NCBI GenBank assembly: GCA_038522735.1 | Contig: JBCBJX010000003.1 | Coordinates: 20,685 to 84,684, forward strand | Reading direction: 5' to 3' | Length of the DNA: 64,000 nucleotides | From: Pseudomonadota bacterium | GTDB lineage: Bacteria; Pseudomonadota; Alphaproteobacteria; Caulobacterales; Parvularculaceae | Notes under the pieces: generated by a model | Told to the model about the DNA's origin: nothing | The model's input: the letters and a program-made list of their open reading frames with translations, nothing else | The model's database searches: none | Part shown: in pieces, positions 4,983 to 5,783 of the stretch | Position numbering within the stretch: position 1 is the first letter of the stretch | Layout: each line of letters begins with the position of its first letter | Made by a program: the position numbers and the translations under genes

Positions 4983-4992
4983 TCTGCTAGCA

Positions 4993-5021
4993 TTGACAGC
5001 ACGTTTCGCAATCGACATATC
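4993..5021 (+). promoter_or_regulatory. candidate sigma70-type promoter for the vapB-like gene, implying a leaderless or near-leaderless mRNA
   Basis: A perfect TTGACA (4993-4998) is followed by a 17-nt spacer and CATATC (5016-5021). The ATG is at 5028, only 6 nt downstream, and no SD sequence is visible. Confidence 0.4.
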
Positions 5022-5027
5022 CCGCTC

Positions 5028-5354
5028 ATGAAAACGATCACCATCAGACAGGTCCCCGACGAGGTGCACGAGGCGCTCCGCCTGCGCGCCGCCGCGGACG
5101 GCTGCTCGATGGAGGAAGAGGCGCGCCGGCTGCTTGCGCAGTCCCTGCGGCCGGCCGCCAAGCCTGATTTCAGCGGCGTGCGGGCCATTCAGGCGCGCAT
5201 CAGGACACGACGCGAGCGGACCGGCGATGCGCGAACTGCTGCGGAAATCGTCCGCGACATGCGGAACGAGGATCTCGCTGCGACGGATGCGAAATGGGAA
5301 CGGATCGACGCCGACGCGAAGCGGCGGCGTGAAGAGGGCGGGGGAGGCGTATGA
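5028..5354 (+). CDS. type II antitoxin, ribbon-helix-helix (FitA/VapB-like)
   Basis: The N-terminus 'MKTITIRQVPDEVHEALRLRAAADGCSMEEEARRLL' matches the beta-strand plus two-helix RHH pattern of plasmid-stability/FitA-type antitoxins. It overlaps the downstream PIN gene by 4 nt (ATGA). Confidence 0.75.
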   Translation: MKTITIRQVPDEVHEALRLRAAADGCSMEEEARRLLAQSLRPAAKPDFSGVRAIQARIRTRRERTGDARTAAEIVRDMRNEDLAATDAKWERIDADAKRRREEGGGGV

Positions 5355-5746
5355 TGCTCGATACGTCAGCCGTCCTTGCTTTCTTTTTCGATGAACCGGG
5401 CGCCGACACCGTCGAGCAGGCCTTGCCGGGGGCTGCGATTTCCGTAGTGAATCTCGGCGAACTGTTCGGCGTCGTCCGTCGCAGCGGGGTTGAGGCAAGC
5501 CCGCGGGAGGTCGAGGGGCATCTCGCTTCGGCCGGCGTCTCAGTCGTGTCGCCGACCTCGGCGACCGCGCGCCTCGCCGCCGACTACGTCGCGACCCCGA
5601 CGCCTCGGGGCGCAGCGTCGATCTCCCTCGCCGATGGGTTCTGCCTCGCCCACGCCGCCGAAGCCGGCGTGCCCGTGCTCACCGCCGACAGGGCGTGGGC
5701 CGAGACGCCCTTCGAGCATCCCGTCGATATCCAACTCGTTCGCTGA
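5351..5746 (+). CDS. vapC: type II toxin, PIN-domain ribonuclease (VapC-like)
   Basis: 131 aa. '[12 protein letters not shown]' supplies the first PIN Asp. Further acidic residues lie in 'NLGELF', '[11 protein letters not shown]' and 'VLTADRAW', in the usual VapC spacing. It is translationally coupled to the upstream antitoxin. Confidence 0.8.
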
Positions 5747-5783
5747 CGCCAGCGATCCGCACACGACCCGAAGGAAAGACATC

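Follow-up and report, generated by a model that had tools for sequence, protein, structure and literature searches.

A predicted VapBC-type toxin-antitoxin operon at a conserved position between atpG and atpD in Parvularculaceae-like bacteria

Introduction

Chromosomal type II toxin-antitoxin (TA) modules are usually described as mobile, patchily distributed and of uncertain benefit. A predicted module of the VapBC type lies between atpG and atpD, the genes for the gamma and beta subunits of the F1 ATP synthase, in a 64,000-nt stretch of DNA from a member of the Parvularculaceae (GenBank assembly GCA_038522735.1, contig JBCBJX010000003.1, forward-strand positions 20,685 to 84,684). This whole stretch is called the window, and all coordinates refer to it unless another locus is named. 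The pair is probably a canonical type II VapBC operon, with a FitA-like ribbon-helix-helix (RHH) antitoxin, a PIN RNase toxin and ATGA-coupled translation, that has long resided at a fixed position in the atpHAGDC operon of a Parvularculaceae-like clade and did not arrive by recent mobile insertion.

Several described systems resemble this module in part. VapBC complexes bind operators in their own promoters, and the antitoxin VapB is degraded by Lon (PMC3378870). In FitAB of Neisseria gonorrhoeae (2bsq), a [(VapBC)2]2 octamer binds operator half-sites via its RHH domains and autoregulates (PMC3378870). The antitoxin in the window is likewise of the FitA-like RHH type (PF22513, with a profile match to FitA), and octamer binding by FitAB serves as the model for the repeats at 4985-5020. 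However, FitB is a distant structural match to the window VapC (rank 27, 17% identity), the FitAB operator consists of two distant half-sites whereas the putative operator in the window is made of 9-bp tandem units over the -35 box, and the genomic contexts differ.

The closest solved relative is Mycobacterium tuberculosis VapBC30 (4xgq/4xgr), which shares the PIN fold, the same acidic tetrad and the upstream position of the antitoxin. It belongs to another phylum, however, and is a stand-alone chromosomal TA that does not lie inside an essential operon; with about 27% identity between VapC30 and the window VapC, its RNA target is not transferable. Among alphaproteobacteria, Sinorhizobium meliloti NtrPR, Caulobacter crescentus VapBC1 (5k8j) and Rickettsia felis VapBC2 (3zvk) are autoregulated PIN/antitoxin pairs, and the latter two are structural matches of the window VapC, but identity is low (15-20%). 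To our knowledge, none of the three has been reported within an atp operon. NtrPR figures as an autoregulated VapBC-type module among the systems cited in one report (PMC3378870).

In terms of context, the closest analogue is mazEF of Staphylococcus aureus and Listeria monocytogenes. According to two reports, mazEF has a fixed, conserved place immediately before the sigB operon and is oriented like this core operon, and its transcription can thus affect the downstream sigB-operon genes (PMC6879715; PMC5308263). MazEF belongs to a different TA family, in which MazF is an mRNA interferase, and precedes a regulatory operon, whereas vapBC is placed between two subunit genes of an essential bioenergetic operon. 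A full-text search found no report of a TA module inside an atp or ATP synthase operon, an absence that holds for the literature searched. By its sequence-level features the module belongs to the known VapBC family, and its conserved atp-operon context appears to be unreported.

Identity of the two proteins

The first open reading frame (ORF1, vapB; 5028-5354, + strand) begins 45 nt after atpG and encodes 108 residues with the N-terminus MKTITIRQVPDEVHEALRLRAAADGCSMEEEARRLL. Its RHH domain (residues 3-39) matches PF22513 (FitA-like_RHH) at E=4.3e-17 with 62 bits (cutoff 27), and the C-terminal tail behind it is the putative toxin-binding part. A profile of five atp-linked VapBs matches M. tuberculosis VapB2 (3h87_C, E=4e-5), FitA (2bsq_E, 2h1o_E) and the Mnt repressor. 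A k-mer search with VapB returned only VapB itself and one ortholog, from locus L001, because the C-terminal half of the protein diverges fast.

The second open reading frame (ORF2, vapC; 5351-5746, + strand) encodes 131 residues. Its start codon is joined to the vapB stop by a 4-nt ATGA overlap (5351-5354) and is preceded by a Shine-Dalgarno sequence, GGAGG, at 5343-5347 (+ strand). This start is the form kept in all relatives. NCBI annotates a second in-frame ATG at 5354, giving a 130-residue protein (P0001) that is present in the databases, where the 131-residue form has no identical entry. In the metagenome-assembled genome (MAG) GCA_039820005.1, the two genes are labeled merely ‘PIN domain-containing protein’ and ‘hypothetical protein’.

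VapC matches the PIN family PF01850 at E=7.2e-17 with 62.5 bits (cutoff 23.6), covering model positions 1-119 of 120. The catalytic residues D4 (5360-5362), E37 (5459-5461), D95 (5633-5635) and D113 (5687-5689), all encoded on the + strand, do not vary across a family alignment of 43 sequences or among five aligned atp-linked copies; S6, N34 and T111 are likewise invariant in the 43-member alignment. An AlphaFold2 model built on this alignment has a mean pLDDT of 96.9. When the model was compared with the PDB by Foldseek, the top match was VapC30 (E=6e-8, TM 0.74-0.81, 26-28% identity), followed by the VapCs of the F plasmid, Salmonella and Shigella, then by VapC15, VapC20 and VapC11, and at lower ranks by C. 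crescentus VapBC1, FitB and R. felis VapBC2. Every one of the first 37 PDB matches is a VapC/PIN chain. In a phmmer search of VapC against the PDB, VapC30 was the sole match (E=0.002), and a scan of NCBIfam returned no VapC model that passed its cutoff, with VapB giving a sub-threshold match.

With hidden Markov model (HMM) matches at E=4.3e-17 and E=7.2e-17, the pair is far beyond what chance open reading frames would give. Because the Pfam matches, the catalytic tetrad, the modeled fold with its PDB matches and the VapB profile matches agree, ORF1 and ORF2 are identified from sequence and model as a VapBC-type type II TA module with an RHH antitoxin and a PIN RNase toxin. A first-pass annotation, made without database searches, had placed both genes and their overlap correctly and had given correct sequences throughout. 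It had read an RHH/FitA-VapB-type N-terminus in the first protein and PIN-like spacing of acidic residues in the second, and both readings are borne out: PF22513 and PF01850 are matched in HMM searches, the VapB profile reaches VapB2 and FitA, and the four acidic residues are present and invariant. An ATP synthase subunit or accessory factor was also considered and is rejected, since RHH and PIN models are the only ones that match and the cassette is missing from most alphaproteobacterial atp operons.

Conservation of the atpG-atpD position

AtpG was used to scan 185,579 species genomes, of which the best 80 loci were kept, and a profile of five VapCs gave 17 top-scoring clusters of VapC relatives. 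In at least 13 distinct, diverged lineages, vapBC is found between atpG and atpD. Besides the window, the atp-linked carriers are L001, L011, L086, L087, L088, L090, L092, L093, L095, L096, L098 and L100, so that intact vapBC orthologs occur in 12 other lineages; L098/L099 and L100/L101 are paired locus entries, both at the atpG-atpD junction. L011, which came out of the AtpG scan, is a Parvularculaceae MAG. In L001, a JGI contig, VapC (P0002) is 70% identical to that of the window and the gene order is atpH-atpA-atpG-vapB-vapC-atpD-atpC. Genomic context was looked up for nine diverged VapC relatives, namely P0002 and eight from the profile search, and eight of them are atp-linked; the exception is P0137 (L097).

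A recent mobile TA cassette or islet, which the first-pass annotation had presumed, is therefore rejected. The module occupies the same junction in 13 lineages, its GC content (0.65-0.73) is inside the local range, no integrase or transposase is found nearby in the gene content of the window and of the L001 neighborhood, and no flanking repeats are found in 4960-5060. Comparison of the junction across related genomes, which that annotation had proposed, thus points to synteny and away from mobility.

In L088, the vapC-atpD gap contains an extra 59-residue ORF (L088 3904-4083) with weak RHH similarity (TraY E=0.001, FitA-like E=0.004), which may be an orphan antitoxin-like gene.

Promoter and putative operator of vapB

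The 45-nt atpG-vapB gap contains a putative sigma-70-type promoter (4993-5021, + strand) with a -35 box TTGACA at 4993-4998, a 17-nt spacer, a -10 box CATATC at 5016-5021 and 6 nt to the vapB ATG. This promoter was recognized solely through comparison of orthologous junctions. One geometry, TTGAC(A/T/C), 17 nt, a -10-like hexamer and 6-8 nt to the ATG of vapB, is found in the 13 atp-linked loci and in the non-atp locus L097. The -10 hexamers include TACAAT (L096, five of six consensus positions), TACACT, TACATT, TACAGT, TATGCT and TAGGAT; CATATC in the window agrees at three of six and CACATC in L001 at two of six. The outlier is L100, whose hexamer agrees at none of six positions with a 17-nt spacer, while an 18-nt spacer gives TAGGGT. 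The orthologous promoter of L086 (TTGACA-17-TACACT) passes a consensus scan with 10 of 12 positions.

A Shine-Dalgarno sequence is missing before vapB in 12 of the 13 loci, in contrast to vapC (GGAGG) and atpD (GAAGGA). The vapB mRNA is predicted to be leaderless or nearly so, with transcription starting at the A of the AUG or right beside it, because the -10 box ends 6-8 nt before the ATG; the absent Shine-Dalgarno sequence agrees with this. Leaderless mRNAs that start with AUG are common in at least one alphaproteobacterium, S. meliloti, for which 171 are reported (PMC3616915).

The -35 box and spacer sit within three to four tandem 9-bp units, TG(C/A)(T/C)AGCA(T/A), which keep the same register in all 13 atp-linked loci. 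In the window, four in-register units span 4985-5020 (+ strand): TGCTAGCAT (4985-4993), TGACAGCAC (4994-5002), GTTTCGCAA (5003-5011) and TCGACATAT (5012-5020). The repeats that overlap the -35 box read TGCTAGCAT/TGACAGCAn. Perfect inverted repeats of 10-14 nt are centered on the -35 box in L086, L087 and L011, and L001 has a direct repeat with 9-bp spacing. A repeat search at the window junction gave nothing above threshold, leaving just an 8-bp palindrome, TGCTAGCA, and TGACAGCA. By analogy with FitAB and the enteric VapBC systems (PMC3378870), the tandem units are likely the operator of VapB or VapBC.

Directly past the atpG stop, the 13-mer AGCATTGACAGCA is invariant in the first three atpG-vapB junctions aligned. 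It occurs exactly in nine of the 13 loci and with 1-3 mismatches in the other four, and among 85 loci compared it is confined to those that bear the cassette. A metagenome-wide scan for AGCATTGACAGCA followed by the vapB start returned two contigs (L086, L087), both with the order atpG-vapB-vapC(-atpD). L097 shares this architecture, though its repeat, CAATGCC, is different. In L090, the promoter and operator come after an interposed OsmC gene, which argues that they belong to the cassette and not to atpG. The first-pass annotation had assumed that the module carries a promoter of its own, and the atpG-vapB gap supplies a candidate that points into atpD.

Taken as a mechanism, the conserved geometry suggests that the promoter right after the atpG stop (TTGACA-17 nt-CATATC-6 nt-ATG) would start a leaderless mRNA at the vapB AUG or immediately beside it. 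Dimers of VapB, linked through VapC dimers, would then bind the tandem TG(C/A)(T/C)AGCA units over the -35 box and spacer and repress transcription, a step proposed because of the conserved 9-bp repeats and the homology to FitA and VapB2. Going by what is known of the family, depletion of the labile VapB would free VapC to cleave tRNA or rRNA and arrest translation.

Host phylogeny and selection

Host trees were built by neighbor-joining from AtpG (90 alphaproteobacterial taxa) and from AtpG plus AtpD (80 taxa). Ten carriers form one clade with 100% bootstrap support together with L006 and L007, and the names of its MAGs suggest that this clade is Parvularculaceae or Caulobacterales. Two carriers belong to a second Caulobacterales clade (100% support), L098 directly and L100 as placed by its VapC; in other members of this clade, the gap contains OsmC or a coiled-coil gene in place of vapBC. 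The contig of L096 is too short for placement in the host trees. L007 is nested among carriers and has a clean 34-nt atpG-atpD gap, and is therefore taken as a loss of the cassette. The first-pass annotation held that the module would be hard to lose; its long retention across carriers fits this view, whereas L007 goes against it.

Two side observations concern members of these clades. In L006, AT-rich sequence of about 650 nt extends from atpG to the contig end, with no atpD (L006 5883-6537); it may come from an island insertion or from chimeric assembly and is uninformative on vapBC. In the Caulobacterales MAG L098, priA and a 460-residue metallo-beta-lactamase-fold gene, not atpH-atpA, precede atpG (L098 373-2649), and its F1 operon is therefore differently organized.

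Selection on the module was estimated as the NG86 ratio of nonsynonymous to synonymous substitution rates (dN/dS). For the two closest pairs it is 0.22 and 0.20 in vapB and 0.19 and 0.12 in vapC, the comparison of the window with L001 giving 0.22 and 0.19, respectively; atpG gives 0.15-0.19 and atpD 0.09. As both genes are at about 0.1-0.2, similar to atpG, vapB and vapC are judged to be under purifying selection.

In a neighbor-joining tree of VapC, the atp-linked sequences fall into three subgroups with 96%, 98% and 92% support. On the host tree, L088 (type 1) clusters with L093 (type 2) and L007 at 97%. Such a pattern could reflect either old alleles that were sorted among lineages or alleles exchanged by recombination via the conserved atp flanks.

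Several points weigh against a long-standing, canonical VapBC resident. Most carriers are MAGs or metagenome contigs, dS is close to saturation except in the closest pairs, and all trees are neighbor-joining trees of short proteins, that of VapC using about 125 residues. Joint monophyly of the atp-linked VapC subgroups has 3-13% support, and the host tree shows groups 1 and 2 intermingled, so recombinational swapping or repeated capture is possible; for the same low support, a single insertion event is not claimed. At the promoter, a consensus scan of the window finds no site, as the -10 box is too weak, and the third operator unit is degenerate in the window (5003-5021 region) and in L001 (4405-4423). 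Owing to these two features, the window lineage may have a weakened cassette promoter or weakened autoregulation, and expression there may depend on read-through, although such dependence is hard to square with the lack of a Shine-Dalgarno sequence before vapB.

Partial degradation of the operator and -10 box might also be expected if the pair were a decaying, inactive remnant, and GC-rich DNA yields many spurious ORFs that could be mis-called as genes. The chance of either is minimal. Strong full-length HMM matches, the intact catalytic tetrad, dN/dS far below 1, orthologs in 12 lineages and the confident AlphaFold2 fold effectively refute a remnant or mis-called pair.

Some type II TA modules defend against phage, and the presence of three VapC subtypes at one fixed locus resembles the turnover of defense loci. 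A module in a highly transcribed operon might sense the shut-off of host transcription, upon which VapB would run out and VapC would fire in abortive infection. This role is quite improbable, as no PADLOC defense model matches VapB or VapC at E<=0.01 and no other defense genes adjoin the module.

Transcription into atpD and atpC

Downstream of the cassette lie atpD (5784-7214, + strand; TIGR01039 E=2e-248), which encodes the F1 beta subunit and is reached only via vapBC, and atpC (7409-7801, + strand; PF02823 E=2.5e-26, NF001851 E=9e-43), which encodes the epsilon subunit and is the last gene of the operon. The vapC-atpD spacer (5747-5783, + strand) has 37 nt, includes the atpD Shine-Dalgarno sequence GAAGGA (5770-5775) and is nearly identical in L001. 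Most carriers have a spacing of 25-41 nt with a Shine-Dalgarno sequence, and the atpD Shine-Dalgarno (GAAGGA/GAGGAA) is kept in all relatives.

Within 4983-5783, terminator prediction gives nothing on the + strand, and a scan for sigma-70 consensus promoters finds none that would serve atpD separately. Folding of the RNA at both junctions is unremarkable (z-scores +1.3, +0.5 and -0.4). An attenuator or terminator within the cassette was considered and dropped, as neither a + strand terminator nor a significant RNA structure is predicted in the cassette. Since no terminator is predicted and the spacer is only 37 nt with a Shine-Dalgarno sequence, atpDC should receive both read-through transcripts and transcripts from the vapB promoter. 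In the proposed mechanism, atpD-atpC would thus be fed by read-through from the atpH promoter plus the vapB promoter. The claim of the first-pass annotation that atpDC can be transcribed only through the cassette is consistent with the absence of a predicted terminator and of an atpD promoter.

This arrangement raises the question of whether the module regulates its host operon. The VapBC promoter and operator might have been co-opted as a regulated internal promoter of atpDC or as a roadblock to read-through, so that the supply of beta and epsilon subunits, or an energy-stress checkpoint, would follow the VapB:VapC ratio. This takes up, as the main function, the speculative idea of the first-pass annotation that F1 subunit stoichiometry could become coupled to TA promoter occupancy. 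The promoter faces atpD with no predicted terminator intervening, its position and geometry are kept in 13 lineages from two host clades, and vapB and vapC are under purifying selection over family-level divergence. The atp-linked operator is also found only in the atp context: both metagenome matches are at atpG-vapB, and the repeats of L097 differ. However, L007 manages with a plain 34-nt gap, as do 60 of the 77 other alphaproteobacterial loci with theirs; the -10 boxes of the window and L001 are the weakest among the 13 carriers (CATATC, CACATC) and their operators are decayed; and a regulator would need no intact toxin active site, yet that of VapC is invariant. Co-option is therefore considered unlikely. 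A more specific version of it is equally unlikely, in which a VapBC subfamily fixed in the F1 operon of Parvularculaceae-like bacteria and some Caulobacterales would use its leaderless promoter as a conditional internal promoter of atpD-atpC and bound VapBC as a roadblock, so that the supply of beta and epsilon subunits, or a checkpoint that arrests translation, would depend on how ATP-dependent proteases turn over the antitoxin.

The atpG-atpD gap as an insertion site

The atpG-atpD gap has a median of 71 nt and exceeds 300 nt in 13 of 77 alphaproteobacterial species loci. Among the occupants of large gaps are OsmC/Ohr-like genes (five loci) and small coiled-coil genes resembling DUF7310 (four loci), besides DUF6232, PhyH and lipoprotein genes; insertions are found in L015, L021, L022, L028, L030, L038, L042, L052, L066 and L071. 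The gap is plain in 60 of the 77.

These unrelated insertions suggest another origin for the fixed position of vapBC, as a tolerated selfish passenger at a permissive hot spot that would persist by addiction and by hitch-hiking or recombination via the conserved atp flanks, without benefit to the host. In addition to the 13 large gaps, extra ORFs occur at other atp junctions, the intermingling of VapC subtypes among the hosts suggests allele exchange, and there is one clean loss (L007). Yet addiction alone does not keep catalytic residues and a dN/dS of about 0.1-0.2 over family-level divergence, and both host clades have the cassette at the identical position. A passenger of this kind is possible but doubtful, and a long-standing VapBC resident is favored.

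OsmC and vapBC share the gap in some carriers. The order is OsmC-vapB-vapC in L090 (2736-3896) and vapB-vapC-OsmC in L098 (2690-3794) and L100 (3205-4306), in both of which the end of vapC and the start of osmC share 4 nt; this suggests that vapB-vapC-osmC is a three-gene unit in the second host clade.

Neighboring genes

In positions 1-8000 of the window, the genes from priA to atpC are all on the + strand. Upstream of the cassette are priA (185-1627), atpH (1809-2363), atpA (2369-3898), a 56-residue ORF (3908-4078) and atpG (4101-4982; PF00231 E=1e-101, NF004146 E=6e-146), which encodes the F1 gamma subunit and ends with a TGA stop at 4980-4982. The 56-residue ORF, in the atpA-atpG gap, has a GTG start and a predicted transmembrane segment and is without a Pfam family; the same junction in relatives contains unrelated ORFs of 179 (L088), 156 (L093) and 218 residues (L100).

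The atpD-atpC gap is filled by a Cys-rich ORF of 66 residues (7219-7419, + strand) with a weak YHS-domain match (E=0.002), which overlaps the start of atpC by 11 nt. Homologs with 57-70% identity occupy the same gap in five distant alphaproteobacteria (L009, L036, L040, L054, L073), and none is found in that gap of the nearest relative, L001. Past atpC, on the minus strand, the window encodes a 602-residue protein (7805-9613) with many tandem repeats of about 18 residues (GGSGNDA / GGRGDDV) and no Pfam match. L001 has a 522-residue gene without a Pfam match at the same place and on the same strand.

Implications

Genes have been inserted repeatedly at the atpG-atpD junction of alphaproteobacteria and at other atp junctions, which matters for operon annotation and for models of F1 stoichiometry. 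Among the genes found there, this vapBC subfamily is unusual in occupying one exact position of an essential, highly expressed operon in at least 13 lineages, under purifying selection and with a conserved promoter and putative operator that face the beta-subunit gene. If the cassette is transcriptionally neutral, it would be an ordinary VapBC with an unusually stable address. If co-option were true, it would represent a TA module domesticated to regulate the ATP synthase according to energy status. The locus offers a tractable natural case for asking whether chromosomal TA modules may be retained for host-level reasons and how a TA promoter may shape neighboring core genes.

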